A stretch of 33,600 bases of DNA from a virus (lineage: Duplodnaviria > Heunggongvirae > Uroviricota > Caudoviricetes), in IMG/VR virus record IMGVR_UViG_2534681900_000010; one strand, written 5' to 3'. Of the stretch, positions 1 to 33,600 are shown piece by piece. A model generated the notes under the pieces. The model did no database searches and was not told the DNA's origin. It saw only the letters and a program-made list of their open reading frames with translations. How positions within the stretch are numbered: position 1 is the first letter of the stretch; each line of letters begins with the position of its first letter. A program made the translations under genes and the position numbers.

Positions 1-981
1 TTATAACGTCACTCCGCCTTTTAGTGGATTCAGAGCGACGGCGTTCTGCAGGTAGTCAGGCGCAAGGTGCGCATAGGTCATTGTCTGCTGAATGCTCGCA
101 TGCCCCAGAATCTGTTGCAGTGCAATTATGTTGCCCCCATTCATCATGAAATGGCTTGCGAATGTATGCCGCAGAATGTGGGTTGCCTGATTGGGAGGTA
201 TATCAGGTTTCACTCTGCGTAAAATCCCGCAAAACTTCTCATAATCTACCTTGAACAATTTGGCGCTGGCCTCCTCTTTAACTTTTTTCTCCAGTTCCTC
301 AGAAATCGGCACTGTTCGCTTTTTACCGTTTTTGGTTTTCAGGAAGGTAACCCTGCAACTTGTAATCTGTGCTGGTTTTAGCGTGGCAACTTCCGTCCAT
401 CTTCCTCCAGTGCTCAGACATAAAAGCGCGACAAGTAAGTCATCACCAGTCAAAACATTTAGCAGTTTTTCGATTTCTGCTTTTTCCAGGAACGTCATTT
501 CAGGGTTAGCCTCCGTCAGTGGCGGCAGTCCGTGAATTGGGTGTTGCCCGGAAAATTCATCCAATTGAATTAATTTTGTGAACATGCCGGATAATCGGTA
601 CATGTCGCGGTTTATCGTTGCAGCACTGATGCCATCACGTAGTCGCATGGAGCGATAATCCATCAAAGCCCTTTTGTTCATCCGACTCACTGGTATATCA
701 CCTATGCCGCTGATGGTTTTGAGCAGATGATTAAACTCTTTTGTCCCATGCTCGTGGTTTTGCCCGTGGTATTTCCACCAGATGTCGAGCAATTCTGTCA
801 AAGTTCGGCGGTCTGCTCGCTGGCCTCCCCATTCTTTCTGACTGGCATTGACGATTGTGTATCGCTCAAATGCTACCGCTTCAGCTTTTCTTTCAAATTT
901 CCTGCGGATGCGTTTTCCATCGCGACCGCGAGGCCTGATATCCACTTCATAACGTCCATCATCGAGCTTTCTGATACTCAT
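1..981 (-). CDS. int: Tyrosine site-specific integrase (P2 Int-like)
   Basis: C-terminal catalytic region ...ATHILRHTFASHFMMNGG...GHASIQQTMTYAHL (HxxR and Tyr nucleophile). Sits at the prophage left end next to the C repressor. ORF-track ORF 1..1191 is trimmed to the ATG at 979-981 (MSIRKLDDGRYEV...); the upstream extension overlaps C and is not taken as coding. Confidence 0.9.
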   Translation of the reverse strand: MSIRKLDDGRYEVDIRPRGRDGKRIRRKFERKAEAVAFERYTIVNASQKEWGGQRADRRTLTELLDIWWKYHGQNHEHGTKEFNHLLKTISGIGDIPVSRMNKRALMDYRSMRLRDGISAATINRDMYRLSGMFTKLIQLDEFSGQHPIHGLPPLTEANPEMTFLEKAEIEKLLNVLTGDDLLVALLCLSTGGRWTEVATLKPAQITSCRVTFLKTKNGKKRTVPISEELEKKVKEEASAKLFKVDYEKFCGILRRVKPDIPPNQATHILRHTFASHFMMNGGNIIALQQILGHASIQQTMTYAHLAPDYLQNAVALNPLKGGVTL

Positions 982-1093
982 AAAGCCCTCCGATGAACAC
1001 GAGTTTTCTTGTTGTTTAGCCCTTTGTGGTTGTGTGATGAATATTTTTTTACCAGTAACATGCATTTTATGTGCATGTAATGTCGGTAAATAG

Positions 1094-1387
1094 TTAGCCA
1101 GTTTTGCGGCCTGAGTGTGACGATGTTGTTTCTTCTGGCCCAGAGTGTGCGACGACCGGGGAAATCTGCCCGGATTCTGGCGCAATCTCATCTGTCATAA
1201 TCCATAATGTATATTTTTTAAACAGCGGTGTGTTGACTACTTGCTTTACGATTTGTAGTCCTGGCTCTTTATGTCCACCTTCATAATTTTTCAACGAACT
1301 AAGTGCTAATCCACTAAGCTCGCAAAATTTTTTTTGTGTTAATCCCTCGGCCTTGCGAATAGCGCGAAGTTTCTCCGATATTTTCAT
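1094..1387 (-). CDS. C: Immunity repressor C (HTH, XRE-like)
   Basis: 97-aa protein with N-terminal helix-turn-helix (GLTQKKFCELSGLALSSLKNYEGG) and a C-terminus ...YTLWIMTDEIAPESGQISPVVAHSG... recalled as P2 C-like. Divergent from cox across a short operator region. Confidence 0.85.
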   Translation of the reverse strand: MKISEKLRAIRKAEGLTQKKFCELSGLALSSLKNYEGGHKEPGLQIVKQVVNTPLFKKYTLWIMTDEIAPESGQISPVVAHSGPEETTSSHSGRKTG

Positions 1388-3605: not shown

Positions 3606-3829
3606 TGCCGGACAACGTAGATTTTATTCAGGAACAACAGGCTGAATTACTGGAGCGCCAGATTAACGCGGCAAGGGTAAAACATTGCGGTGCTTCTGCG
3701 CTGGTTTGCGAAGAGTGTGACGCGCCAATACCTGCTGCCCGTCGTGCGGCTTACCCGTCAGCCACGCGTTGTGTTTCCTGTCAGTCAGTCTTTGAAGCAA
3801 AAAACAAACATTACCGGAGAACGGCATGA
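3605..3829 (+). CDS. TraR/DksA-family C4 zinc-finger protein
   Basis: 74-aa product with CxxC...CxxC (LVCEECDAPI...TRCVSCQ), typical of small phage TraR/DksA-like proteins. Coupled to flanking ORFs. Confidence 0.7.
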   Translation: MPDNVDFIQEQQAELLERQINAARVKHCGASALVCEECDAPIPAARRAAYPSATRCVSCQSVFEAKNKHYRRTA

Positions 3830-4101
3830 GTATTCGTATTGAAATTGGCGAACGTTATGTCGTTACCAGTGACAGCTTTCAGTTTATTCTCCACGAGAAA
3901 AAGAGAGCGGAAAGCGGTAAAAACGCCGGTCAGGAATGGCTGGCGGTGGTTGGTTATTACCCGAAATTAAGCCAGCTCGTTTCCGGCCTGATGCATCACG
4001 ATATTCTGACCGGAAGCGCAAAGTCTTTTGCTGATTTAAACGCGCAGGTTGAGCAACTCAGCAGGCGTTGTTCAGAGGCTTTTGGCTCATATGGCCGTTA
4101 A
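3826..4101 (+). CDS. Hypothetical early protein (91 aa)
   Basis: ORF whose stop (4099-4101) overlaps the A start codon region. No motif recognised. Confidence 0.5.
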   Translation: MSIRIEIGERYVVTSDSFQFILHEKKRAESGKNAGQEWLAVVGYYPKLSQLVSGLMHHDILTGSAKSFADLNAQVEQLSRRCSEAFGSYGR

Positions 4102-6400
4102 AGCCTCCGGGCGTTTTGTCCCTCCGTCAGCATTTGCCGCAGGCACCGGTAAGACGTTTACCGGTGCTTATGCATGGAACGCGCCACGCGAGGCTGTCGG
4201 GCGCGAAAGACCCCTTACACGTGACGAGATGCGTCAGGTGCAAGGTGTTTTATCCACGATTAACCGCCTGCCTTACTTTTTGCGCTCGCTGTTTACTTCA
4301 CGTTATGACTACATCCGGCGCAATAAAAGCCCGGTGCACGGGTTTTATTTCCTCACATCCACTTTTCAGCGTCGTTTATGGCCGCGCATTGAGCGTGTGA
4401 ATCAGCGCCATGAAATGAACACCGACGCGTCGTTGCTGTTTCTGGCAGAGCGTGACCACTATGCGCGCCTGCCGGGAATGAATGACAAGGAGCTGAAAAA
4501 GTTTGCTGCCCGTATCTCATCGCAGCTTTTCATGATGTATGAGGAACTCTGCGATGCCTGGGTTGATGCACATGGCGAAAAAGAATCGCTGTTTACGGAT
4601 GAGGCGCAGGCTCACCTCTATGGTCATGTTGCTGGCGCTGCACGTGCTTTCAATATTTCCCCGCTCTACTGGAAAAAATACCGTAAAGGACAGATGACCA
4701 CGAGGCAGGCATATTCTGCCATTGCCCGCCTGTTTAACGATGAGTGGTGGACTCATCAGCTTAAAGGCCAGCGTATGCGCTGGCATGAGGCGTTACTGAT
4801 TGCTGTCGGGGAGGTCAATAAAGACCGTTCTCCTTATGCCAGTAAACATGCCATTCGTGATGTGCGTGCACGCCGCCAGGCAAATCTGGAATTTCTTAAA
4901 TCGTGTGACCTCGAAAACAGGGAAACCGGCGAACGCATCGACCTTATCAGTAAGGTGATGGGCAGTATTTCTAATCCTGAAATTCGCCGGATGGAGCTGA
5001 TGAACACCATTGCCGGTATTGAGCGTTACGCCACCGCAGAGGGTGATGTGGGGATGTTTATCACGCTGACCACGCCGTCAAAGTATCACCCGACACGTCA
5101 GGTCGGAAAAGGCGAAAATAAAACCGTCCAGCTTAATCACGGCTGGAACGATGAGGCATTTAATCCAAAGGATGCGCAGCGTTATCTCTGCCGTATCTGG
5201 AGCCTGATGCGCACGGCATTCAAGGATAATGACTTACAGGTCTACGGTTTGCGTGTCGTCGAGCCACACCACGACGGAACGCCGCACTGGCATATGATGC
5301 TTTTTTGTAATCCACGCCAGCGTAACCAGATTATTGAAATCATGCGTCGCTACGCGCTCAAAGAGGATGGAGACGAAAGAGGAGCCGCGCGAAACCGTTT
5401 TCAGGCAAAACATCTTAACCGGGGCGGTGCTGCGGGGTATATCGCGAAATACATCTCAAAAAACATCGATGGCTATGCACTGGATGGTCAGCTCGATAAC
5501 GATACCGGCAGGCCGCTGAAAGATACTGCTGCGGCTGTTACCGCATGGGCGTCAACGTGGCGCATTCCGCAATTTAAAACGGTTGGTCTGCCGACAATGG
5601 GGGCTTACCGTGAACTACGCAAATTGCCTCGCGGCGTCAGCATTGCTGATGAGTTTGACGAGCGCGTCGAGGCTGCACGCGCCGCTGCAGACAGTGGTGA
5701 TTTTGCGTTGTATATCAGCGCGCAGGGCGGGGCAAATGTCCCGCGCGATTGTCAGACTGTCAGGGTCGCCCGTAGCCCGTCGGATGACGTTAACGAGTAC
5801 GAGGAAGAGGTCGAGAGAGCGGTCGGCATTTACGCGCCGCATCTCGGCGCGCGTCATATTCATATCACCAGAACGACGGACTGGCGCATTGTGCCGAAAG
5901 TTCCGGTCGTTGAGCCTTTGACTTTAAAAAGCGGCATCGCCGCGCCTCGGAGTCCTGTCAATAACTGTGGAAAGCTCACCGGTGGTGATACTTCGTCACC
6001 GGCTCCCACGCCTTCTGAACACGCCGCAGCAGTGCTTAATCTGGTAGATGACGGTGTTATTGAATGGAATGACCCGGTGGTCGTGAGGGCGCTCAGAGGC
6101 GCATTAAAATACGGCCTGAGAAGACCAAACCGTCAGCAAAGAAACGGAATACCGTTAAAACCGCATGAAATAGCACCATCGGCCAGGCTGACCCGGTCAG
6201 AACGAATGCAAATTACCCGTATCCGTGTTGACCTTGCTCAGAACGGTATCAGGCCTCAGCGATGGGAGCTTGAGGCGCTGGCGCGTGGGGCGACCGTAAA
6301 TTATGACGGGAAACAATTTACGTATCCGGTTGCTGATGAGTGGCCGGGATTTTTACAAACAGAAATTGTTTTTGGGATTAATAAGTTATCTCTAAGCTAA
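4091..6400 (+). CDS. A: Replication initiation endonuclease A (rolling-circle initiator)
   Basis: 769-aa product beginning MAVKASGRFVPPSAFAAGTGK..., recalled as highly similar to P2 gpA. ORF-track ORF 4049..6400 is trimmed to the ATG at 4091. Confidence 0.9.
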   Translation: MAVKASGRFVPPSAFAAGTGKTFTGAYAWNAPREAVGRERPLTRDEMRQVQGVLSTINRLPYFLRSLFTSRYDYIRRNKSPVHGFYFLTSTFQRRLWPRIERVNQRHEMNTDASLLFLAERDHYARLPGMNDKELKKFAARISSQLFMMYEELCDAWVDAHGEKESLFTDEAQAHLYGHVAGAARAFNISPLYWKKYRKGQMTTRQAYSAIARLFNDEWWTHQLKGQRMRWHEALLIAVGEVNKDRSPYASKHAIRDVRARRQANLEFLKSCDLENRETGERIDLISKVMGSISNPEIRRMELMNTIAGIERYATAEGDVGMFITLTTPSKYHPTRQVGKGENKTVQLNHGWNDEAFNPKDAQRYLCRIWSLMRTAFKDNDLQVYGLRVVEPHHDGTPHWHMMLFCNPRQRNQIIEIMRRYALKEDGDERGAARNRFQAKHLNRGGAAGYIAKYISKNIDGYALDGQLDNDTGRPLKDTAAAVTAWASTWRIPQFKTVGLPTMGAYRELRKLPRGVSIADEFDERVEAARAAADSGDFALYISAQGGANVPRDCQTVRVARSPSDDVNEYEEEVERAVGIYAPHLGARHIHITRTTDWRIVPKVPVVEPLTLKSGIAAPRSPVNNCGKLTGGDTSSPAPTPSEHAAAVLNLVDDGVIEWNDPVVVRALRGALKYGLRRPNRQQRNGIPLKPHEIAPSARLTRSERMQITRIRVDLAQNGIRPQRWELEALARGATVNYDGKQFTYPVADEWPGFLQTEIVFGINKLSLS

Positions 6401-6522
6401 GACGCTCAAAGCAAGAGATTATTTTACTGTACGTAGCCATCTGGAATTGTGGCTGTGTTAAAACGCTCGAGATTTTTTGGATATCCAGTTATACTCCGCT
6501 TAGAAATCATTCGGAGACTAAG

Positions 6523-7569
6523 ATGGCGGTAAAAGTTGTTGATCTTTTTTGCGGTGCTGGCGGTTTAACGCACGGCTTACATTTGGCCGGATTGGACGTT
6601 GTCGCAGGCATTGATTTAGAAGGTGAGTGTCGTGTTGCATACGAAAGCAATAATGATGCACTTTTTATTGAAAAAGATATATCTCTGGTGACAAAAGATG
6701 AAATCGAAAATCTTTTTGAAGGGGCAAGTGTTAAAGTATTGGCCGGATGTGCACCTTGTCAGCCATTTTCTAAATATACTCAGGGAAAAGATAAAAAAAA
6801 TGATAAAAAGTGGCCGTTATTATATGAGTTTGAACGTTTAATAAAAGACACGAAACCAGAAATAGTTACAATGGAAAACGTTCCTGATGTGACAAAACAT
6901 TCTGTCTATGATGATTTTTATAATACCTTAATAGCATTGGGTTATTATGTTTGGGCAAATAAGATTGAATGTGTAGATTTTGAGGTTCCGCAAAACAGAG
7001 TGAGGCATGTATTACTCGCATCTAAATTTGCGCCGATTTCTCTGATGAAACCACAAACATCGGTAAAGCTGACAGTTAGGGATTGCATTGGTAATTTACC
7101 TTCGATTGAAGCGGGACAAGCAGATCCAAAAGACCCTCTCCATAAGGCGAGTAGATTGAGTGAAATTAATCTCAAACGTATTCTACATTCAAAACCGGGG
7201 GGGACATGGAGGGATTGGCCTGCTGAATTAATCGCTTCATGTCATGCCAAGAAAAGTGGGCAGGGATATGCCAGTGTTTATGGTCGTATGTCTTGGGATA
7301 AACCGAGTCCAACGATAACTACACTTTGTTATGGTTTTGGTAATGGACGTTTTGGTCATCCCGAGCAGCATCGTGCAATCTCACTTAGGGAAGCAGCATT
7401 ACTTCAAACGTTTCCTGTTACATATTCATTTACCCAACCGGGCGAGCCGATCAAAATGAAAAATGTCGGGCGTATGATAGGTAATGCTGTTCCTGTAAAC
7501 TTAGGTAAAGCGATTGGTCTTTCAATAGTACATCATTTGAAAGAGTTTCACCCCGCCGCTCTTAAATAA
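6523..7569 (+). CDS. DNA (cytosine-5)-methyltransferase
   Basis: All canonical C5-MTase motifs are present in order: DLFCGAGG (motif I, AdoMet), GCAPCQPFS (motif IV, catalytic Cys), TMENVPDV (motif VI), VPQNRVRHVLL (motif VIII), MIGNAVPVNLGKAIG (motif X). Visibly AT-rich relative to the phage backbone. Confidence 0.9.
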   Translation: MAVKVVDLFCGAGGLTHGLHLAGLDVVAGIDLEGECRVAYESNNDALFIEKDISLVTKDEIENLFEGASVKVLAGCAPCQPFSKYTQGKDKKNDKKWPLLYEFERLIKDTKPEIVTMENVPDVTKHSVYDDFYNTLIALGYYVWANKIECVDFEVPQNRVRHVLLASKFAPISLMKPQTSVKLTVRDCIGNLPSIEAGQADPKDPLHKASRLSEINLKRILHSKPGGTWRDWPAELIASCHAKKSGQGYASVYGRMSWDKPSPTITTLCYGFGNGRFGHPEQHRAISLREAALLQTFPVTYSFTQPGEPIKMKNVGRMIGNAVPVNLGKAIGLSIVHHLKEFHPAALK

Positions 7570-8267
7570 GCCTGAGTATCAAGATAAGTTTGTATATTTT
7601 CAAGGATGCAGTTGAGATAATGAAAAACTTCATCCTTCATTTCTGTTAGTGTATCAATAGATGTATCTCTGCCTTTGTTTCTAAATGATTCAGAACCATG
7701 AGCAAGGTCGTTTCTGGCCTTTTTTATTGGAAGTAAATTGCAACCATTTCGCGTTATTTCTGAATCTGTATCTGCTGAGAAGCCATATTTTTCAGCGACT
7801 TCTCTAATTTTTCTAGCGTCAACATTTCCAGAAAATAACGGATTTTTATTTGATTGGATAAGTTTTTTGTGAGCGTTTAGCCACTCTTTAAATATAACTT
7901 TTGCAATGTTCCCTTGTGAGAAATCTATTTTCCCATTTGGTGATTGTAAACTATGAAATGCTACTCTTGTAAGGTTTTCATTTACAGTGTCTGCACATAA
8001 TGATTCATTAGACATTAAAACATTATGAATGTCTTCTATTGCATTGGAAATGGTTGCTTCAATGAGATTGTACAATATAATAAATGCATTAGCCTTTAAA
8101 ATATGAGTCATATCAATATCAATGGGTTGTTGTATAGGCGCATCGCTTGTATTCTCTTTATAGACTAGAGATGGTTTTTTGTTTATTAGTAACTGAATGA
8201 ATGAGAAGTATTCATTAATATCTTGCATTCTTTCTTGGAAAAGAATTTTACTTGTCATCTCCTCCAT
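7548..8267 (-). CDS. HEPN-like predicted RNase (239 aa), second gene of the DUF262 operon
   Basis: Rx4H motif in KKARNDLAHGSESF near the C-terminal third. Start ATG is 10 nt downstream of the DUF262 gene stop; its 3' end overlaps the convergent MTase by 22 bp. AT-rich. Confidence 0.6.
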   Translation of the reverse strand: MEEMTSKILFQERMQDINEYFSFIQLLINKKPSLVYKENTSDAPIQQPIDIDMTHILKANAFIILYNLIEATISNAIEDIHNVLMSNESLCADTVNENLTRVAFHSLQSPNGKIDFSQGNIAKVIFKEWLNAHKKLIQSNKNPLFSGNVDARKIREVAEKYGFSADTDSEITRNGCNLLPIKKARNDLAHGSESFRNKGRDTSIDTLTEMKDEVFHYLNCILENIQTYLDTQAYLRAAG

Positions 8268-8277
8268 TTACTTGGCC

Positions 8278-9423
8278 TCACTCCATATTTTCATCTTCAT
8301 TTTCATCTTCGTCGACAATATTTTCTGGAATGTCTTTCCCAAGCAACTTGTTTTTTACATATTCAATGCGTGCTTTAACTTTGGGTTTAGAGTTGCTGGC
8401 ATCTGAACGTGTGTGCGTGATAAACTCTTTCGAGTTGATCCAGTCATCAATATTTTTAGGAACTAAATTGGGTTCTTCCTCTAGTGCTAATGTTGCACCG
8501 ACGGCAAGAGCTTCGAAACGAATCCTAGGAACAGTGGTGGCGTTTTTCACCTTTCTGAAACCATTTGGGAAATGTGTATTAATGAATTGGCTCATTTTAT
8601 GAAATTTTTCCGCCAGCATAGCTGCGTTTTCATCTGTATATTCGGCATTTTTACGTTTTAAATAGGTTGTAAGAAATTCATCAACGCTTTTTCTGAAATC
8701 AAGATATTCTTCAGTGTAGGCAAAGTAGCGTAGTGCCAATTCTGGATATTCAGAGCGACGTTTTCTTGCATCTCCCAAAGGACAGATGCTATGAAATAGA
8801 GGATCTTCGGAAATTTCATTGATAAATGCAAGGAATGGCCCATCATGGCTACCTTGCCGTTGTTCCATTGTTGTTAGTTTTTTTCCGCCAGTATTCAGAC
8901 GGTCAAAAATTTCCCTTCTTGTCTCTTCGTCACAATGTTCTGTAAGTTCAATCATTCGAATAGTTTTTCTATCAAAACGTAGGCGACGGGGAGTACTGAA
9001 ATCAGAATATTTAAAACCATTGGCTGTGACTAATTTCTGCAGGCCTTCAAGAGTTAGTTTGTTATTGGTAAATTGGTGTAGGGTTCTTATTCGTTGGCTA
9101 CCGTCAACAATTTCAAGTCTACCTTCATTTTCACCTGAACCAATATCGGCAACGAATATGTAAGGTATAGGAAGATTTAAAAGCAGAGATTCAATGAAAC
9201 GGGATTTTTGCTTGTTGTTCCAGATAAACTCCCTTTGGTAGTCAGGTATAAAAAGCTCTGCCTCATCTTCTTCAAGACCATTCTGAAATTTGTCCACAAT
9301 AACACTTATCGGGAACTCACGTATTTCATGGTCAGTGATTTTTTGCATTTCAACTATGCTTTGATCTAAAAGCTCCTTTTCTTCTTTAGTTTTTGGGGTA
9401 TGTTCTGCTTTTTTTCTCGCCAT
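8278..9423 (-). CDS. DUF262 (ParB/GmrSD-N-like) domain protein (381 aa)
   Basis: N-terminal region ...FIPDYQREFIWNNKQKSRFIESLLLNLPIPYIFVADIGSGENEGRLEIVDGSQRIRTLHQF contains the DGxQR signature of DUF262. Acidic C-terminal tail (DEDENEDENME). RBS AGGAT about 10 nt upstream. AT-rich. Confidence 0.7.
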   Translation of the reverse strand: MARKKAEHTPKTKEEKELLDQSIVEMQKITDHEIREFPISVIVDKFQNGLEEDEAELFIPDYQREFIWNNKQKSRFIESLLLNLPIPYIFVADIGSGENEGRLEIVDGSQRIRTLHQFTNNKLTLEGLQKLVTANGFKYSDFSTPRRLRFDRKTIRMIELTEHCDEETRREIFDRLNTGGKKLTTMEQRQGSHDGPFLAFINEISEDPLFHSICPLGDARKRRSEYPELALRYFAYTEEYLDFRKSVDEFLTTYLKRKNAEYTDENAAMLAEKFHKMSQFINTHFPNGFRKVKNATTVPRIRFEALAVGATLALEEEPNLVPKNIDDWINSKEFITHTRSDASNSKPKVKARIEYVKNKLLGKDIPENIVDEDENEDENME

Positions 9424-9450
9424 GAGCTTATTATCCTACTATGCGTGTGA

Positions 9451-9539
9451 TTGCATTAAATTGCATGTTAAACAAAAGCATAATCTATATCAGTCAATCA
9501 GCCAGTGGCAAGGTGTTGTGATTACAATGCAACTGCATT
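9451..9539. promoter_or_regulatory. TGCAT-containing direct and inverted repeats upstream of the DUF262 operon
   Basis: TTGCAT at 9451-9456 and 9461-9466, one helical turn apart; inverted repeat AATGCA-AC-TGCATT at 9526-9539. Sits between the operon start (9423) and cos. Confidence 0.3.
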
Positions 9540-9562
9540 AGAACCGACTCATGAAGCGGGCG

Positions 9563-9581
9563 GGCGAGGCGGGGAAAGCAC
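9563..9581. other. cos site (19-nt cohesive-end sequence, P2-type)
   Basis: GGCGAGGCGGGGAAAGCAC matches the P2 cohesive-end sequence as recalled, at the expected place just past the Q 3' end. Confidence 0.75.
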
Positions 9582-9723
9582 TGCGCGCTGGCGGTGGTGC
9601 TGATTTTATTTTTTCAGCGTCTGAGCGCGTCGTGAAGGCGTTTACTTGGCCTGCTGGGGCGTTGGTGTGTCTGCGGGATTTTTTGTGCGGTGATGAGCGT
9701 GTGAGGGCGTGATGACGGGGTGT

Positions 9724-9745
9724 AAAAAAGCCGCCCGCAGGCGGC
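9724..9745 (-). terminator. Rho-independent terminator downstream of Q
   Basis: Hairpin GCCGCC-cgca-GGCGGC flanked on the plus strand by an A6 run, which is a T-run on the minus strand, immediately past the Q stop. Confidence 0.6.
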
Positions 9746-9750
9746 GATGT

Positions 9751-10785
9751 TCAGTCGTTGTCAGTGTCCAGTGAGTAGTTTTTAAAGCGGATGACCTCCT
9801 GACCGAGCCAGCCGTTTATCTCGCGGATCCTGTCCTGTAGCGGGATAAGCTCATTGCGGACAAAGACCTTTGCCACTTTCTCAATATCACCCAGCGACCC
9901 GACGTTCTCCGGCTTGCCGCCCATCAACTGAAAGGGGATGCGGTGCGCGTCCAGCAGGTCAGCGGCACTGGCTTTTTTGATATTAAAAAAATCGTCCTTC
10001 GTCGCCACTTCACTGAGGGGGATAATTTTAATGCCGTCGGCTTTCCCCTGCGGGGCATAGAGAAACAGATTTTTAAAGTTATTGCGGCCTTTCGACTTAA
10101 CCATGTTTTCGCGAAGCATTTCGATATCGTTGCGATCCTGCACGGCATCGGTGACGTACATGATGTATCCGGCATGTGCGCCATTTTCGTAATATTTGCG
10201 GCGGAACAGCGTGGCCGACTCATTCAGCCAGGCAGAGTTAAGGGCGCTGAGATATTCCGGCAGGCCGTACAGCTCCTGATTAATATCCGGCTCCAGCAGG
10301 TGAAACACGGAGCCGGGCGTGAAGGCTGTCGGCTCGTTGAAGGACGGCACCCACCAGTAAACATCCTCCTCCACACCACGGCGGGTATATTTTGCCGGTG
10401 AGGTTTCCAGTCTGATGACCTTACCGGTGGTGCTGTAACGCTTTTCCAGAAACGCATTACCGAACACGAGAAAATCCAGCACAAAGCGGCTGAAATCCTG
10501 TTGCGAAAGCCACGGATGCGGGATAAATGTCGAGGCCAGAATATTGCGTTTGACGTAAATCGGCGAGCTGTGATGCACGGCAGCACGCAGGCTTTTCGCC
10601 AGACCGGTAAAGCTGACCGGCGGCTCATACCATCTGCCGTTACTGATGCACTCGACGTAATCCAGAATGTCACGGCGGTCGAGTACCGGCACCGGCTCAC
10701 CAAAGGTGAATGCCTCCATTTTCGGGGCGCTGGCGGTCATTTTTTTTGCCGCAGGTTGCGGTGTTTTCCCTTTTTTCTTACTCAT
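9751..10785 (-). CDS. Q: Portal (capsid vertex) protein
   Basis: 344 aa, the size recalled for P2 gpQ. Adjacent to cos and divergent from O. Start overlaps the P stop. Confidence 0.9.
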   Translation of the reverse strand: MSKKKGKTPQPAAKKMTASAPKMEAFTFGEPVPVLDRRDILDYVECISNGRWYEPPVSFTGLAKSLRAAVHHSSPIYVKRNILASTFIPHPWLSQQDFSRFVLDFLVFGNAFLEKRYSTTGKVIRLETSPAKYTRRGVEEDVYWWVPSFNEPTAFTPGSVFHLLEPDINQELYGLPEYLSALNSAWLNESATLFRRKYYENGAHAGYIMYVTDAVQDRNDIEMLRENMVKSKGRNNFKNLFLYAPQGKADGIKIIPLSEVATKDDFFNIKKASAADLLDAHRIPFQLMGGKPENVGSLGDIEKVAKVFVRNELIPLQDRIREINGWLGQEVIRFKNYSLDTDND

Positions 10786-21423: not shown

Positions 21424-24183
21424 ATGAGCACGAAATTTAAAACCGTTATCACTACTGCCGGAGCCGCAAAGCTGGCAGCCGCCACTGTCCCCGGCGGGAA
21501 AAAAGTAAACCTGTCTGCAATGGCCGTGGGTGACGGTAATGGCAAATTGCCGGTGCCGGATGCCGGTCAGACGAAACTGGTGCATGAGGTCTGGCGTCAC
21601 GCTCTGAATAAAGTCAGCGTGGATAACAAGAATAAAAACTATATCGTGGCTGAACTGGTTGTACCGCCCGAAGTGGGCGGCTTCTGGATGCGTGAGCTTG
21701 GTCTGTATGACGATGCCGGAACACTGATTGCGGTATCCAACATGGCAGAAAGCTATAAGCCAGAACTGGCTGAAGGCTCCGGACGTGCGCAGACCTGCCG
21801 CATGGTTATTATTCTCAGCAACGTGGCGTCCGTTGAGCTGAGTATTGATGCCAGCACGGTGATGGCGACGCAGGATTACGTCGATGACAAAATCGCAGAG
21901 CATGAGCAGTCCCGCCGCCATCCTGACGCCACGCTGACAGAAAAAGGTTTTACTCAGTTAAGCAGTGCAACAAACAGCACCAGTGAAAAGCTGGCGGCAA
22001 CGCCAAAAGCGGTCAAGGCAGCAAATGACAACGCAAATTCACGTCTGGCGAAAAATCAGAACGGTGCAGATATCCAGGATAAATCAGTTTTTCTGGACAA
22101 TGTTGGCGTTACCAGCCTGACGTTTATGAAAAACAATGGCGAAATGCCGCTTGATGCTGATCTGAATACATTTGGTCCCGTTAAGGCTTATCTGGGGATC
22201 TGGTCTAAAGCTACCTCAACTAACGCAACACTGGAGAAAAATTTCCCGGAAGATAATGCTGTCGGTGTGCTTGAGGTTTTTGCTGCCGGCAATTTTGCAG
22301 GTACGCAACGCTTTACCACAAGAGACGGCAATGTATACATGCGTAAACTCGCCAATAAGTGGAATGGCACTGATGGTCCGTGGGGCGTATGGCGTCACAC
22401 TCAATCAGCTACCCGCCCTTTGAGTACGACTATAGACCTGAATACGCTTGGAGCCGCCGAACATCTTGGTTTATGGCGTAACAGTAGCTCGGCTATAGCT
22501 TCATATGAACGCAATTATCCAGAGGAAGGCGGCTTTGCTCAGGGGACGCTTGAGATCCTCGAAGGCGGGAATTATGGAAGAACGCAACGTTATACCACTC
22601 GCCGTGGAAATATGTATGTCCGCTGCCTTGCGGCAAGCTGGGATGCATCAAATCCGCAGTGGGAACCGTGGTTAAGAGTCGGTCATCAGTCAGAGAGTCG
22701 TTATTACGAAGGTGATTTGAATGATGTAACCTCACCAGGTATTTACAGCGTTACAGGTAAAGCGACCAACGGTCCAGTACTGGACGGAAACGGCGTGACT
22801 GTACTCGGCATTCTGGAAGTGTTGAGGCGGTTTGATGGTGTTAATGTATGGCAGCGTTATACAACTGCCGGAACAGGTACAACCCTTAAAGGCCGCACCT
22901 TTGAGCGCGTCTTTACCGGCAGCTCATGGAGCGAATGGCGGGAAGTCTACACCTCGTATTCACTTCCCCTGAATCTGGGTATCGGCGGTGCTGTGGCAAA
23001 GCTCACCAGCCTGGACTGGCAGACCTACGATTTTGTGCCGGGCAGTCTGATAACCGTTAGGCTGGATAATATGACCAATATTCCCGACGGTATGGACTGG
23101 GGCGTCATTGATGGCAACCTGATAAACATCGCAGTTGGTCCGAGTGATGATTCCGGTACGGGGCGCTCAATGCATGTATGGCGCAGCACTGTAAGTAAAG
23201 CGAACTACCGATTTTTTATGGTGCGTATTTCAGGAAATCCGGGAAGCCGCACGATCACAGCAAGACGAGTACCAATCATTGACGAAGCCCAGACATGGGG
23301 CGCGAAACAGACATTCAGTGCTGGCCTTTCTGGTGAACTGTCCGGCAATGCGGCGACAGCAACAAAGCTGAAAACAGCCCGTAAAATTAATAACGTTTCG
23401 TTTGATGGAACATCAGATATTAACCTGACGCCGAAAAATATTGGTGCATTTGCTTCAGGAAAAACAGGAGACACCGTTGCGAATGATAAAGCCGTTGGGT
23501 GGAACTGGAGTAGCGGAGCCTATAACGCAACTACTGGTGGGGCATCAACGTTAATTCTTCATTTTAATATCGGTGAAGGAAGTTGTCCCGCCGCCCAGTT
23601 CCGCGTTAATTATAAGAACGGCGGTATTTTTTATCGTTCTGCTCGTGACGGTTACGGATTCGAGGCTGACTGGTCTGAGTTTTATACCACAACGCGAAAA
23701 CCTACAGCGGGAGATGTCGGTGCACTGCCGTTATCTGGTGGTCAATTGAATGGTGCTCTGGGTATAGGAACATCCAGTGCTCTTGGCGGTAATTCGATTG
23801 TTTTGGGTGATAATGACACGGGCTTTAAACAAAATGGTGATGGTAATCTGGATGTTTATGCTAATAGCGTCCATATTATGCGCTTTGTCTCGGGAAGTAT
23901 TCAAAGTAATAAAACCATAAATATTACGGGGCGTGTTAATCCCTCGGATTACGGTAACTTTGATTCCCGCTATGTCCGGGATATCCGGCTTGGTGGTGCT
24001 GCCACATACAAACCTGCGAACAATGGCATGACATGGACACATCAGGCACCGTCCGGGTGTGTATATTCCGGCATTATTGTTCAGGATACCGGCTCAAACT
24101 CTGCCGATAACATTGGTGGTGTATATTACAGGCCGGTTCAGAAATACATTAACGGGACATGGTATAACGTGGCGCAGGTATAA
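21424..24183 (+). CDS. H: Tail fibre protein (enlarged relative to P2 H)
   Basis: 919 aa. The N-terminal part is a conserved baseplate-attachment region, followed by tandem repeats and the ATATKLKTARKINNVSFDGTSDINLTPKNIGAF tail-fibre motif. P2 H is recalled as about 670 aa. Confidence 0.9.
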   Translation: MSTKFKTVITTAGAAKLAAATVPGGKKVNLSAMAVGDGNGKLPVPDAGQTKLVHEVWRHALNKVSVDNKNKNYIVAELVVPPEVGGFWMRELGLYDDAGTLIAVSNMAESYKPELAEGSGRAQTCRMVIILSNVASVELSIDASTVMATQDYVDDKIAEHEQSRRHPDATLTEKGFTQLSSATNSTSEKLAATPKAVKAANDNANSRLAKNQNGADIQDKSVFLDNVGVTSLTFMKNNGEMPLDADLNTFGPVKAYLGIWSKATSTNATLEKNFPEDNAVGVLEVFAAGNFAGTQRFTTRDGNVYMRKLANKWNGTDGPWGVWRHTQSATRPLSTTIDLNTLGAAEHLGLWRNSSSAIASYERNYPEEGGFAQGTLEILEGGNYGRTQRYTTRRGNMYVRCLAASWDASNPQWEPWLRVGHQSESRYYEGDLNDVTSPGIYSVTGKATNGPVLDGNGVTVLGILEVLRRFDGVNVWQRYTTAGTGTTLKGRTFERVFTGSSWSEWREVYTSYSLPLNLGIGGAVAKLTSLDWQTYDFVPGSLITVRLDNMTNIPDGMDWGVIDGNLINIAVGPSDDSGTGRSMHVWRSTVSKANYRFFMVRISGNPGSRTITARRVPIIDEAQTWGAKQTFSAGLSGELSGNAATATKLKTARKINNVSFDGTSDINLTPKNIGAFASGKTGDTVANDKAVGWNWSSGAYNATTGGASTLILHFNIGEGSCPAAQFRVNYKNGGIFYRSARDGYGFEADWSEFYTTTRKPTAGDVGALPLSGGQLNGALGIGTSSALGGNSIVLGDNDTGFKQNGDGNLDVYANSVHIMRFVSGSIQSNKTINITGRVNPSDYGNFDSRYVRDIRLGGAATYKPANNGMTWTHQAPSGCVYSGIIVQDTGSNSADNIGGVYYRPVQKYINGTWYNVAQV
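22159..22960 (+). repeat. Three tandem ~92-aa coding repeats inside tail fibre gene H
   Basis: Repeat units start at 22159 (DLNTFGPVKAYLGIW...), 22435 (DLNTLGAAEHLGLW...) and 22714 (DLNDVTSPGIYSV...). Each carries G.LE(V/I)...QR(F/Y)TT..G..Y.R...W..W. Periods are 276 and 279 nt. Confidence 0.7.
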
Positions 24184-24186
24184 TTT

Positions 24187-24714
24187 ATGCAGCATTTGAA
24201 AAATATTACGGCGGGTAATCCAAAAACGGTTGAACAATATCAATTGACAAAGGGTTTTGATGTTGTCTGGTTTTTTTCAGAAGATGGTAAGAACTGGTAC
24301 GAAGAACAAAAGTATTTTGCTGATGACACGATAAAAATAGCGTACGACAAAGATAATATTATCCGCTATGTGGAAAAGGATGTGACAGCTATCAGACCGG
24401 ATGGATTAAGTGTTGTTGAAGTGGCGGATATTACTGCTAACCGACGGGCGGACATTTCAGGGGGCTGGATGTTTAAGGACGGCAAAGTGATTAAACGCAT
24501 TTATACGGCAGAGGAATTGCTGCAGCAGGCAGAAAACCGGAAAGCCAGACTTCTTGCAGATGCTGAATCCGTGATTTTGCCGCTGGAGCGCGCGGTCAGA
24601 CTGAACATGGCAACAGATGAGGAGCGTAGCCGACTGGATGCATGGGAGCGTTACAGCGTTCTGGTCAGTCGTGTGGATCCTGCAAATCCTGAATGGCCGG
24701 AAATGCCGCAATAA
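24187..24714 (+). CDS. G: Tail fibre assembly chaperone
   Basis: 175 aa immediately after H; size and position as recalled for P2 gpG. Confidence 0.85.
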
Positions 24715-24935
24715 GTTGTATGATCTCTGGAGTGAGCAAACGTATCTATGGCACAGAGTAAAGCCTAATCTGACAGGCCGCTCTGTGTCTGGAGTAGATT
24801 TTAGTAAAGCATTATTTTATTAGTGCAAATTCTAATCAATACATTTTATGTATATGATATCCTGCAGACTTTAATGACTTGGTTTAGGCTAACCAGATAA
24901 CACTGAAGGAATATTTTTGATAATTAAGGTGCGGT

Positions 24936-25529
24936 ATGTTTACTAAGCGACGATTAAAAAATATTAACTGGGAGGCAAGTTCAGTGATTCTTGCTATGGT
25001 TCTCTTTGTTGGAAATATATTTTATACAAATCATCGTGATGATATAAGCATGGAGGCTGAGAGGGACAGTATCAGAACAATGTTTGCATATGAAATCGCT
25101 AATAACCATCGCGCTCTCACTTTTCTTGATAAAACGAGATATATTGGCTTTGACGAAAATTCGGAGCATTTTGTTGGCGAGCCTTTTGCCATTAATGTCA
25201 AATCATTAGGGGGGCCTCGCTTACAGATTGCATTAAACCAGAGTGATAAAGTGTTTAAATCCTACTTCAGCGAATTAAGTAAGCTTGATAAAGAGGATGT
25301 TACTCTTCTTATGGACTATTACCATGAGCAAAGCATCCTGCTGGAGCGTGTAAAATCTACGTTACAGAAGATGAAAAGTGGTAATGATATTAAAGTTGAT
25401 ATTGATGGTTACTTATTAGAAGAACACTTCATGAATGAGCTTAATCTTTCTAATATTTTGCTTAAACGCTATAGCCATTTGTTGTCACAACACGCCAAAG
25501 AACATAAAACAAAAGATTTACATAATTGA
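24936..25529 (+). CDS. Hypothetical membrane-anchored protein (197 aa) at the Z/fun accessory locus
   Basis: AT-rich ORF between G and FI. RBS AAGGTG 6 nt upstream. N-terminal hydrophobic segment SSVILAMVLFVGNIFY after a basic MFTKRRLK start. No recognisable catalytic motif. Confidence 0.6.
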   Translation: MFTKRRLKNINWEASSVILAMVLFVGNIFYTNHRDDISMEAERDSIRTMFAYEIANNHRALTFLDKTRYIGFDENSEHFVGEPFAINVKSLGGPRLQIALNQSDKVFKSYFSELSKLDKEDVTLLMDYYHEQSILLERVKSTLQKMKSGNDIKVDIDGYLLEEHFMNELNLSNILLKRYSHLLSQHAKEHKTKDLHN

Positions 25530-25735
25530 TAATCTGCTAATGGTTATTCATGGGGTAACTATGTTTTATATGTAATCCAACTCAGATGAATTATTGATTC
25601 TGGATAATAACCGCAGAGCGGCATATACCCTGACAGGCAAATGTCCGCTTCTTGTTCAAAGCAGACCGTCAGATTTGATAACTTTTGGGCTATGTAAATT
25701 GTCAGTCGGAAAATGAGTGAGTTCAAATCAGGACA

Positions 25736-25759
25736 GGCGGGCGAATTGCCCGCCTTTTC
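25736..25759 (+). terminator. Rho-independent terminator
   Basis: GGCGGGC-gaatt-GCCCGCC hairpin followed by TTTTCTTT. Confidence 0.7.
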
Positions 25760-25858
25760 TTTATCTGTTGTTTCATCCACTGACCAGCCAGGTCAAATAG
25801 CGTCTCATGCTCTGCACAACAGAAAATAGTTGCACCCATTAACCACGGAGTTAAACGG
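25760..25858 (+). promoter_or_regulatory. Putative late promoter region for the FI operon
   Basis: Position only (upstream of FI, downstream of a terminator). An Ogr-type site was not convincingly identified by eye. Confidence 0.35.
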
Positions 25859-27049
25859 ATGAGTGACTATCATCACGGCGTGCAGGTGCTGGAGATTAAC
25901 GACGGCACCCGCGTCATTTCCACCGTATCCACCGCCATTGTTGGCATGGTCTGCACGGCCAGCGATGCGGATGCGGAAACCTTCCCCGTCAATAAACCGG
26001 TGCTGATCACCAATGTGCAGAGCGCGATTGCAAAGGCCGGTAAAAAAGGCACGCTGGCGGCATCGTTGCAGGCCATCGCTGACCAGTCAAAACCGGTCAC
26101 CGTTGTCGTGCGCGTGGAAGACGGCACCGGCGACGACGAAGAAACGAAACTCGCGCAGACCGTTTCCAATATCATCGGCACCACTGACGAAAACGGTCAG
26201 TACACCGGACTGAAAGCCCTGATGGGCGCAGAGTCGGTTACCGGCGTTAAACCGCGCATTCTCGGCGTACCGGGACTGGACACCAAAGAGGTGGCGGTTG
26301 CACTGGCATCGGTATGCCAGGAACTGAATGCCTTCGGGTATATCAGCGCATGGGGCTGTAAAACCATTTCCGAGGCAAAAGCCTACCGTCAGAATTTCAG
26401 TCAGCGTGAGCTGATGGTCATCTGGCCGGATTTCCTTGCATGGGATACGGTCACCAGTACCACCGCCACCGCGTATGCCACCGCCCGTGCGCTGGGGCTG
26501 CGTGCCAGAATCGACCAGGAGCAGGGCTGGCATAAAACGCTGTCCAACGTCGGGGTAAACGGTGTTACCGGCATCAGCGCATCTGTATTCTGGGATTTGC
26601 AGAAGTCTGGCACTGATGCTGACCTGCTGAACGAGGCAGGCGTCACAACGCTGGTTCGCCGCGACGGTTTCCGTTTCTGGGGTAACCGTACCTGCTCCGA
26701 TGACCCACTTTTCCTCTTTGAAAGCTACACACGTACCGCGCAGGTACTGGCCGACACGATGGCTGAGGCGCACATGTGGGCTATTGATAAGCCCATCACC
26801 GCAACGCTGATTCGCGACATCATTGATGGCATCAATGCCAAATTCCGCGAACTGAAAAACAACGGTTATATCGTGGATGGCACATGCTGGTTCAGTGAAG
26901 AAGCCAACGATGCGGAAACCCTCAAGGCCGGAAAACTGTATATCGACTACGACTATACACCGGTGCCTCCTCTCGAAAACCTGACCCTGCGCCAGCGTAT
27001 TACTTCAAGATACCTGGCAAGTCTGGTCACCTCGGTTAACAGCAATTAA
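25859..27049 (+). CDS. FI: Tail sheath protein
   Basis: 396 aa; size and position as recalled for P2 gpFI. Confidence 0.9.
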   Translation: MSDYHHGVQVLEINDGTRVISTVSTAIVGMVCTASDADAETFPVNKPVLITNVQSAIAKAGKKGTLAASLQAIADQSKPVTVVVRVEDGTGDDEETKLAQTVSNIIGTTDENGQYTGLKALMGAESVTGVKPRILGVPGLDTKEVAVALASVCQELNAFGYISAWGCKTISEAKAYRQNFSQRELMVIWPDFLAWDTVTSTTATAYATARALGLRARIDQEQGWHKTLSNVGVNGVTGISASVFWDLQKSGTDADLLNEAGVTTLVRRDGFRFWGNRTCSDDPLFLFESYTRTAQVLADTMAEAHMWAIDKPITATLIRDIIDGINAKFRELKNNGYIVDGTCWFSEEANDAETLKAGKLYIDYDYTPVPPLENLTLRQRITSRYLASLVTSVNSN

Positions 27050-32618: not shown

Positions 32619-32697
32619 CCTCAATTTGCCTGCTGCTTAATGCATTGCAGATGATTTGCTTCCGTTATACTACCGTCAGTTGATAGCGGGAGTATTT

Positions 32698-33600
32698 ATG
32701 AATCAATCTTATGGACGGCTGGTCAGTCGGGCGGCGATTGCTGCGACGGCGATGGCTTCGCTGCTATTGCTGATTAAAATTTTTGCATGGTGGTATACCG
32801 GGTCGGTGAGTATTCTCGCCGCGCTGGTGGATTCGCTGGTGGATATCGGCGCGTCGTTGACGAATTTACTGGTGGTGCGATATTCCCTGCAACCTGCCGA
32901 CGATAATCACTCGTTTGGTCACGGTAAAGCTGAGTCCCTCGCGGCGCTGGCGCAAAGTATGTTTATCTCCGGTTCGGCACTATTCCTGTTTTTGACGGGT
33001 ATTCAACATCTGGTATCTCCAACACCGATGACAGATCCAGGCGTCGGGGTTATCGTGACAATTGTGGCGCTAATTTGTACGATTATCCTTGTCTCGTTTC
33101 AGCGTTGGGTGGTGCGCCGGACGCAAAGCCAGGCGGTGCGGGCTGATATGCTACATTACCAGTCTGATGTTATGATGAACGGCGCAATTCTGCTGGCGCT
33201 GGGGTTGTCCTGGTACGGCTGGCATCGCGCCGATGCTCTGTTTGCATTGGGGATCGGCATCTATATTTTATATAGCGCGTTACGCATGGGATATGAGGCG
33301 GTACAGTCATTACTGGATCGCGCATTGCCTGATGAGGAACGGCAAGAAATTATTGATATCGTGACTTCCTGGCCGGGTGTTAGCGGCGCTCACGATCTTC
33401 GCACGCGGCAGTCAGGGCCGACCCGCTTTATTCAGATTCATTTGGAAATGGAAGACTCTCTGCCTTTGGTTCAGGCACATATGGTGGCGGATCAGGTAGA
33501 GCAGGCTATTTTACGGCGTTTTCCGGGATCGGATGTGATTATCCATCAGGACCCCTGTTCCGTCGTACCCAGGGAGGGTAAACGGTCTATGCTTTCATAA
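32698..33600 (+). CDS. fieF: Cation-efflux pump FieF (CDF family ferrous-iron/zinc exporter), host gene
   Basis: 300-aa product [49 protein letters not shown]... recalled as E. coli FieF/YiiP. ORF-track ORF trimmed to the ATG at 32698; stop at 33598-33600. Confidence 0.9.

Follow-up and report, generated by a model that had tools for sequence, protein, structure and literature searches.

A C5-cytosine methyltransferase in the gpA-gpQ hotspot of a P2-like prophage is the probable modification arm of a conserved three-gene cassette with DUF262 and HEPN partners

We analyzed a 33,600-nucleotide stretch of DNA (hereafter the window) from the IMG/VR virus record IMGVR_UViG_2534681900_000010 (Caudoviricetes), which is a P2-like prophage, and focused on the gene of a C5-cytosine DNA methyltransferase (hereafter the methylase) lying between the genes of a gpA-type replication endonuclease and a gpQ-type portal protein. 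The methylase gene shares a cargo cassette of low guanine-plus-cytosine (GC) content with two genes that converge on it, one encoding a HEPN protein of the MAE_28990 family and the other a DUF262 protein with a ParB-like nucleoside triphosphatase (NTPase) domain. The positions of these genes and of the other features of the window are collected in Table 1.

Table 1 Features of the window, with the evidence or remark attached to each open reading frame (ORF), motif or site.
Feature	Position	Strand	Evidence or remark
Integrase	1-1191	-	Left prophage flank
gpA-type (P2) replication endonuclease	4049-6400	+	ORF; homologous loci annotated 'replication endonuclease' / PF05840 Phage_GPA; left hotspot border, outside cassette
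Low-GC cargo cassette in P2 defence hotspot #1	6401-9506	.	Composition profile and megablast
Sigma-70-like promoter candidate upstream of methylase, TCGAGA-17-TATACT	6467-6495	+	Consensus scan; positional candidate only
C5-cytosine DNA methyltransferase, 348 amino acids (aa)	6523-7569	+	Pfam, NCBIfam and PADLOC matches; motifs; conservation profile; AlphaFold/Foldseek
Methylase motif FCGAGG	6547-6564		aa 9-14
Methylase motif PCQ	6754-6762		aa 78-80
Methylase motif ENV	6874-6882		aa 118-120
Methylase motif QNRVR	6991-7005		aa 157-161
G7 homopolymer in methylase ORF	7197-7203	+	Pro-Gly-Gly codons of conserved KPGGTW; G8 in the Peduovirus P24B2 record
Methylase C240, H241, C269, H279	~7240-7362		Inside the target-recognition region
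Methylase motif GNAVP	7480-7494		aa 320-324
3'-end overlap of convergent methylase and HEPN ORFs, 22 nucleotides (nt)	7548-7569	.	ORF coordinates; no terminator-like site between the genes
HEPN protein, MAE_28990 family, 239 aa	7548-8267	-	PF18737 E=7.6e-18; PF18735 E=7.6e-07
DUF262 / ParB-like NTPase (GmrSD_N), 381 aa, helical C-terminal domain	8278-9423	-	PF03235 E=4.7e-28
Sigma-70-like promoter candidate upstream of DUF262-HEPN operon, TTGCCA-18-TAGATT	9482-9511	-	Consensus scan; positional candidate only
Intrinsic terminator 3' of portal gene	9730-9745	-	GC-rich hairpin then T-run; insulates cassette from late operon
P2 gpQ-type portal protein	9751-10785	-	ORF; homologous loci annotated 'phage portal protein' / PF04860; right hotspot border, outside cassette
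Tail-fibre assembly gene	24187-24714		
197-aa ORF	24936-25529	+	No Pfam or PADLOC match
Tail sheath gene	25859-27049		
Host cation-efflux gene (FieF-like)	32656-33600		PF01545; right prophage flank

The methylase ORF starts with an ATG that has a GGAG 8-11 nt upstream. Its product matches the Pfam family PF00145 (DNA_methylase) with E=1.8e-54 over residues 4-336, corresponding to profile positions 2-323 of 324, and scores 125.8 bits against TIGR00675, for which the cutoff is 100.65. The core of C5-cytosine methyltransferases comprises motif I (FxGxG), which binds S-adenosylmethionine, motif IV (PCQ), which holds the catalytic cysteine, and motifs VI (ENV), VIII (QxRxR), and X (GNAVP). A preliminary description of this DNA had listed a full set of these motifs, and all five were recovered, either invariant in alignments of 16 and 30 relatives or at least 95% conserved among 42 relatives. 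The ORF is intact and has kept all catalytic motifs. An AlphaFold2 model built from a 30-sequence alignment (predicted local distance difference test score 86.3, predicted template modelling score 0.89) predicted the two-domain fold of C5-cytosine methyltransferases, and its best Foldseek matches were the methyltransferase domains of MET1/DNMT1 (E ~1e-24), 3g7u, and M.HaeIII. PADLOC files the protein under DrmMII / MTase_II (type II methyltransferase). The preliminary description had also called it Dcm-like, a label that holds at the superfamily level but not for the Dcm subfamily: an orthologue of Escherichia coli Dcm (CCWGG) was rejected, as the score against NF007772 is 20 bits where the cutoff is 710.

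On the opposite strand, the HEPN protein carries the Rx4H motif RNDLAH (R185-H190), and all 25 sequences compared share R185, N186, and H190, while across 69 sequences these residues are at least 95% conserved; it is predicted to be the effector nuclease, probably a ribonuclease (RNase). The DUF262 protein possesses the motifs that define ParB-DUF262 NTPases (PMC12065111), namely QRxxxW (Q63, R64, W68), DGxQR (D107-R111, here DGSQR), and FxxxN (F173-N177), all at least 95% conserved in 69 homologues. PADLOC matched it to NsnA over its full length (1.3e-54) and to PD-T4-2_A (1.3e-34). Pfam gave PF03235 only and no DUF1524/HNH domain, and in the AlphaFold model the C-terminal half is all-helical with no nuclease fold and with weak matches to the ParB/Noc CTPases and BrxU. 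We predict that this protein is a DNA sensor. None of the PADLOC 2.0.0 models, PD-T4-2_B included, matched the HEPN protein of the window. The two genes form an operon, 10 nt apart with HEPN downstream, that converges on the methylase. No PD-(D/E)xK, HNH, GIY-YIG, or PLD endonuclease was found beside the methylase by Pfam, the neighbours matching PF18737/PF18735 (HEPN_MAE_28990) and PF03235 (GmrSD_N/DUF262) only, in agreement with the earlier statement that no classical type II endonuclease is adjacent.

The segment between motifs VIII and IX sets the target sequence in C5-cytosine methyltransferases. In the methylase family studied here, no part of the protein is as well conserved across phyla as this region (aa ~200-300; column conservation 0.78-0.93), which suggests from the alignments that the whole family would share one fixed target specificity. 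A need for methylase and sensor to go on recognising one common sequence would be expected to produce conservation of this kind. A search for the target sequence by PDB sequence and Foldseek retrieved only generic C5-cytosine methyltransferase relatives (DNMT1/MET1, HaeIII over the N-terminal half only, and HhaI), and the best PADLOC match, DrmMII, does not give a target specificity. Four residues inside the target-recognition region, C240, H241, C269, and H279, are invariant in all alignments and might form a metal site. Phase variation through the G7 homopolymer was considered and rejected as a family feature, the tract being specific to the window allele and not conserved in the family.

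To place the methylase among its relatives, we looked up its neighbourhood from the side of each of the three genes. The preliminary description had presented it as solitary. Among the 80 closest methylase relatives in IMG/VR (57-100% identity), 60 are accompanied by convergent HEPN and DUF262 genes and 20 by a paraMORC ATPase, and none stands alone; every member of the clade in that set has a partner module. Five protein clusters (59-81% identity) were then checked individually, from Shigella/E. coli P2 prophages, an Acinetobacter lambdoid prophage, a Vibrio integrase island, and a Pseudomonas aeruginosa island. A convergent HEPN_MAE_28990 gene lies beside the methylase in all five and a full-length GmrSD_N/DUF262 gene in four of them, the DUF262 position of the P. 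aeruginosa island locus holding only a 158-aa ORF with no Pfam hit. In complete E. coli genomes, the cassette is rare, occurring in 16 of 5426, as three alleles, with all three genes annotated intact in each of the 16. The claim of a solitary gene is contradicted by this conserved neighbourhood.

Starting from HEPN, we searched one-genome-per-species contigs with a profile of 25 homologues and obtained 79 loci. DUF262 lies directly upstream of HEPN in 78 of them; the contig of the remaining one, 3.2 kb long, stops just upstream of HEPN. An orthologous methylase adjoins the pair in 29 of the 79 (phmmer E 1e-104 to 1e-222, with one truncated copy at 5e-19), and these 29 cover every non-cyanobacterial lineage sampled (Enterobacterales, Thalassotalea, Parabeggiatoa, Cytophagales, and Pyrinomonadaceae). 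The search from the DUF262 side, with homologues at 53-65% identity, found the methylase at three of three loci. The geometry is equally regular: of 90 loci with methylase and HEPN, 88 are convergent, and in 85 of these 88 the 3' ends lie no more than 60 nt apart, with 58 overlapping. In pairwise comparisons, methylase identity correlates with DUF262 identity (r=0.83) and with HEPN identity (r=0.78). The trio was seen in Proteobacteria, Bacteroidota, Acidobacteriota, and Cyanobacteria, on prophages, islands, a Tn7-like element, and cyanobacterial chromosomes. Across phyla and kinds of mobile element, the three genes are passed on as a unit, and the methylase is very probably coupled in function to the DUF262-HEPN pair. 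The preliminary description had put forward just such a link, a modification component tied to the convergent pair, as one of its two readings, and the convergence, the correlated divergence, and the complete E. coli trios support it.

At one E. coli/Shigella locus (L084, GCA_019840975.1, 2276-10976), a heavily degraded P2 remnant adjoining cpxP consists of an integrase, a truncated gpA, the intact trio, and a few tail fragments; there, the defence cassette outlives the phage. With 1115 blocks of the assembly collection listing it, the methylase allele of this locus (P0146) is very common in Shigella/E. coli assemblies.

The methylase clade has a second kind of partner. Escherichia phage PhiR44_1 (L096, 4004-7052) encodes, in the same P2 hotspot, a methylase 56% identical to that of the window together with a paraMORC ATPase, and in the tree this methylase nests inside the trio methylases. 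Further methylase-paraMORC loci at this hotspot are those of Yersinia phage P37 (L098, 4001-7046) and the 20 IMG/VR loci, for example L128 and L173. The paraMORC protein is a GHKL ATPase of 650-670 aa that falls in the REBASE-derived PADLOC class 'REase_II' (E=2.3e-91). Both kinds of partner occur together in a composite locus on a Tn7-like element (L182, 4001-9107, Logan ERR4405701 contig), where DUF262, HEPN, and paraMORC, followed by a single convergent C5-cytosine methyltransferase, lie downstream of TnsC/TniQ/TnsE. Because methylases of the same clade pair with paraMORC at the P2 hotspot and serve the composite locus, the methylase may act as a shared self-marking module for alternative partners.

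The clade is also associated with Vsr, an endonuclease that repairs the T:G mismatches arising from deamination of 5-methylcytosine (m5C). Vsr genes lie next to the methylase, or between the methylase and the partner module, in at least seven loci; we noted them at L091 (5028-5438) and L179 (3492-3869), and at L139, L149, L157, L158, L173, and L177. As Vsr genes are attached to this clade, their presence implies that its members would make real m5C in cellular or host DNA.

The best explanation, which we consider the probable one, is that the methylase is the modification arm of a three-gene defence cassette resembling a restriction-modification (R-M) system and carried as cargo in the gpA-gpQ hotspot. 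Host chromosome and prophage would carry m5C, put there by the methylase at a single fixed short sequence, as a mark of self. The DUF262 protein, which has no nuclease domain, would use its ParB-like NTPase and helical DNA-binding domains to read this sequence, engage DNA that lacks the mark, and then activate the HEPN nuclease. The infection would be stopped in this way, probably through cleavage of RNA and either growth arrest or abortive infection. The methylase gene lies directly downstream of the early replication gene and in the same orientation, with the effector operon converging on it, an arrangement that could let methylation precede restriction in a new host. A sensing role for DUF262 has precedents in GmrSD, BrxU, and SspE, where it reads modifications (PMC10952713, PMC12065111), and the lack of a deoxyribonuclease (DNase) domain fits the 2013 proposal that R-M-linked HEPN domains are RNases serving as a suicide or second-line arm (PMC3710099). 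The specific logic, that methylation protects and unmethylated DNA triggers, we regard as plausible though somewhat short of probable. A broader scheme, in which we place rather little confidence, is an m5C-keyed immune family in which a methylase of fixed specificity would be combined with an interchangeable effector (a ParB-like sensor with a HEPN RNase, a paraMORC GHKL ATPase, or both), methylation status would be read out as RNA cleavage or abortive infection and not as DNA cutting, and the cyanobacterial losses described below would reflect substitution by a chromosomal methylase with the same target specificity.

Several observations weigh against the modification-arm reading. The methylase is absent beside HEPN in 50 of the 79 loci found from the HEPN side, where the pair lies among housekeeping genes; all but L048, an unclassified metagenome-assembled genome, are cyanobacterial by the titles of their records. 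In 23 of the 50, one or both of the partner genes are truncated, and 26 have full-length DUF262 and HEPN genes that keep their motifs and have ratios of nonsynonymous to synonymous substitution (dN/dS) of ~0.18-0.23, equal to those of methylase-linked loci, these values being approximate as dS is partly saturated at such distances. When the 69 loci that have both DUF262 and HEPN at full length were placed in a tree, the 26 methylase-less pairs formed about four derived clades nested among methylase-linked lineages, which indicates that the methylase was lost independently several times. PD-T4-2, a DUF262 and HEPN system, is active in E. coli K-12 without a methylase (PMC9519451), and the known DUF262 sensors (GmrSD, BrxU, SspE) answer to modified and not to unmodified DNA. 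In the record of Peduovirus P24B2 (L183, ~3700-3940), the G7 tract is G8 and the methylase is split into two annotated ORFs while DUF262 and HEPN are intact, which may be a homopolymer sequencing error or a natural methylase-null phage. Promoter-like sites in the cassette region are no more numerous than in shuffled sequences. Finally, beyond the 2013 prediction, no experimental work on methylation, nuclease activity, or phage resistance of the trio was found in the searchable literature.

The intact methylase-less pairs argue against an absolute dependence of the pair on the methylase. They suggest that the pair can persist without a methylase in cis, either because a methylase acting in trans would substitute for it or because self-tolerance of the effector would not depend on methylation. 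A chromosomal methylase of the same specificity acting in trans, licensing by methylation as in SspE, and sensing of infection without methylation are all possible for these pairs. A Pfam scan of ten representative neighbour ORFs beside methylase-less pairs found no DNA methylase; the ten encode ClpB, BrkB, an ABC1 kinase, aconitase B, CHAD, SPFH, an AAA ATPase, an acyl-carrier protein, and a small-molecule-type S-adenosylmethionine-dependent methyltransferase, and one is without a hit. One Microcoleus genome holds both a full trio (L075) and a methylase-less locus (L034).

In Microcoleus and its relatives, the methylase-less loci sit in a conserved chromosomal context, with ClpB upstream in most and BrkB downstream where checked (L006); the loci concerned are L007, L009, L016, L021, L027-L029, L032, L034-L037, L040, L042, L043, L047, L053, L055, and L074. 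At the Microcoleus-type loci, DUF262 is cut to ~178 aa and HEPN is usually full length, and they look like vertically inherited, partly decayed remnants.

The behaviour of the known sensors would be better accommodated by methylation-licensed sensing than by protection. In such a scheme, as in SspE, the DUF262 protein would bind m5C sites of the host, its NTPase and the HEPN protein would be competent only there, and the pair would be inert, not toxic, without the methylase. All characterised DUF262 sensors read modified DNA, that is, glucosylated 5-hydroxymethylcytosine for GmrSD, m5C, 5-hydroxymethylcytosine, and its glucosylated form for BrxU, and, for SspE, phosphorothioate, the self modification that stimulates its NTPase (PMC10952713, PMC12065111). 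Several losses of the methylase left no sign of lethality, the truncation of DUF262 or HEPN in 23 of the 50 methylase-less loci is what an inert, drifting pair should leave behind, and the conserved target-recognition region fits licensing equally well. However, an inert pair would not be expected to keep both genes under purifying selection (dN/dS ~0.2), as 26 methylase-less loci do; PD-T4-2 is active without a methylase, and how the binding of self DNA would discriminate an infecting phage is not apparent. On balance, we consider licensing unlikely.

The other reading offered in the preliminary description was an orphan anti-restriction methylase, which would protect phage DNA from host restriction while an independent DUF262-HEPN system adjoins it by chance in a crowded hotspot. 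Solitary methylases are common in phages, the gene is co-oriented with the early operon, and DUF262-HEPN pairs can work alone, but chance adjacency is hard to reconcile with a partner conserved in 80 of the 80 closest relatives, with divergence correlated at r ~0.8, and with a fixed convergent, abutting geometry that recurs in four phyla and outside phages, on integrative islands, in Tn7-like cargo, and on cyanobacterial chromosomes. The association also outlasts prophage decay in the Shigella/E. coli remnants (L084), and the co-occurrence of Vsr would indicate chromosome-wide methylation of the host; we hold the orphan reading to be highly improbable. The same persistence in L084, with an allele so widespread, could speak for a selfish addiction module, in which loss of the element would dilute methylation and the sensor and HEPN protein would arrest the cell, stabilising the prophage or island and leaving defence secondary. 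Type II R-M systems are known to act as addiction modules, and the cassette is like them in architecture and mobility. Yet the cargo of this hotspot is overwhelmingly anti-phage (PMC9122126, PMC9519451), the closest validated relative defends against T4, and loss of the methylase has been tolerated repeatedly in cyanobacteria. Addiction appears very unlikely to us, and it is not mutually exclusive with the modification-arm reading.

The setting of the cassette was determined from the rest of the window. Its genes run from the integrase through replication gene A to the portal, terminase, scaffold, and capsid genes (from 9751) and on to the tail genes, and its first 25 kb are 96.5% identical to Peduovirus P24B2, a sequenced P2-type phage, with 94% covered. 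Near-identical prophages in E. coli chromosomes adjoin cpxP. This gene comes before the integrase in related E. coli genomes, and the window ends in the host cation-efflux gene, so the element is probably inserted between cpxP and the latter. Over the 1-kb windows from 6001 to 10000, the GC content of the cassette is ~36-46% against ~55% for the flanking phage genes, the low-GC patch measuring 3.1 kb. By megablast against E. coli genomes, the whole cassette stretch is present in only three, and ~9507-9750 is P2 backbone, matched in more than 2000. Scans of the cassette for promoters, terminators, and repeats gave nothing above chance, the portal terminator excepted.

The cassette lies between gpA and gpQ, the position of hotspot #1, and the same placement is found in annotated E. 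coli prophages and in Peduovirus P24B2. The gpA-gpQ interval is the main P2 defence hotspot, housing old, tin, and many newer systems (PMC9519451, PMC9122126); the main text of the hotspot paper of Rousset 2022 mentions neither DUF262 nor a methylase. A second low-GC patch (~24000-26000, 41-43% GC) of the window contains the 197-aa ORF, which lies between the tail-fibre assembly and tail sheath genes. This Z/fun position is the second P2 defence hotspot (Vassallo et al.), and the ORF is a candidate for an uncharacterised defence or moron gene.

If the modification-arm reading is correct, the label 'orphan phage methylase' would give way, in the annotation of this gene, to that of modification arm in a conserved and experimentally untouched three-gene defence cassette, for whose gene neighbourhood, predicted in 2013, we found no experimental follow-up. 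Among the defence hotspots of E. coli phages, the one that holds the cassette is the best studied, and the cassette itself is clean, widespread, and tractable. PADLOC 2.0.0 recognises its methylase (DrmMII / MTase_II) and DUF262 protein (NsnA / PD-T4-2_A) but not the HEPN partner. Should the methylase set self and non-self for the sensor and HEPN protein, the trio would offer a tractable model both of a DUF262 NTPase reading DNA modification and of DNA methylation gating an RNase-type abortive response, and the exchange for paraMORC around the same methylase would be a natural comparative experiment.

The closest description is that of Anantharaman, Makarova, Burroughs, Koonin & Aravind (2013), whose Table 1 lists a predicted, R-M-linked operon of genes for a MAE_28990-HEPN, a ParB-nuclease, and a DNA-methylase (PMC3710099). 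All features of that operon are present in the window cassette, which unites in one neighbourhood a PF18737 HEPN with Rx4H, a ParB-fold DUF262, and a DNA methylase, and the idea of a HEPN RNase acting jointly with an R-M-type module is compatible with it. That entry is one line of comparative genomics and took the ParB protein to be a DNase, whereas the window protein has NTPase-sensor motifs and no recognisable nuclease domain. The link to the P2 hotspot, the fixed methylase clade, and the paraMORC alternative are absent from the 2013 description. Among methylase and paraMORC pairs, which are R-M-like (Iyer, Abhiman & Aravind 2008, PMC2292703), some occupy the P2 hotspot seen here, with a methylase from the clade of the window enzyme and a single GHKL ATPase protein as effector instead of DUF262 and HEPN.

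Sensors of the DUF262 type are shared with several systems to which the cassette was nevertheless not assigned. SspABCD-SspE and GmrSD/BrxU have the same NTPase motifs (QRxxxW/DGxQR/FxxxN) with a helical DNA-binding domain, and likewise couple a modification to a DUF262 sensor. They have their own fused DUF1524 HNH-type nuclease, whereas the window has a separate HEPN protein, and the modification in the window would be m5C made by a single methylase rather than phosphorothioate or phage hypermodification. Membership in this type IV-like group was rejected, as the DUF1524 His-Me nuclease fusion is missing from a protein with PF03235 only and a helical C-terminal half. Menshen (NsnA-NsnB-NsnC) shares the ParB-DUF262 plus ParBDB architecture, with the full-length NsnA match as the best PADLOC hit; it possesses an NsnB ATPase and an NsnC inPIN-nuclease and neither methylase nor HEPN, whereas the cassette contains no NsnB or NsnC gene, and it too was rejected.

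PD-T4-2 is a two-gene DUF262 and HEPN anti-T4 system from E. coli ECOR65 that is protective in native and heterologous hosts (Vassallo et al. 2022, PMC9519451). The order of a DUF262 sensor-like protein followed by HEPN is the same, and the PD-T4-2_A model matches the window protein. PD-T4-2 is shorter (~1.5 kb for both genes), was cloned without a methylase, and has a HEPN of the RiboL-PSP family (PF18735), whereas in the window system the methylase is obligately linked outside cyanobacteria. With component A matched, B not matched, the window HEPN without any PADLOC hit, and no methylase in PD-T4-2, we did not assign the cassette to it. Classical type II R-M systems with convergent M and R genes are alike in that a C5-cytosine methyltransferase abuts a putative restriction arm, in mobility, low GC content, and inheritance as a unit, and in the occasional attachment of Vsr. 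They differ in that the partner here is a ParB-like NTPase with a HEPN protein, usually an RNase, and no restriction-fold endonuclease, and in that the specificity region of the methylase is conserved across the family, not diversifying. The linkage expected of such a system is present and the restriction-fold nuclease is not, so that membership in this class was rejected as well. For its logic, the closest likeness of the cassette is to an R-M system, and for its effector components it is to PD-T4-2.

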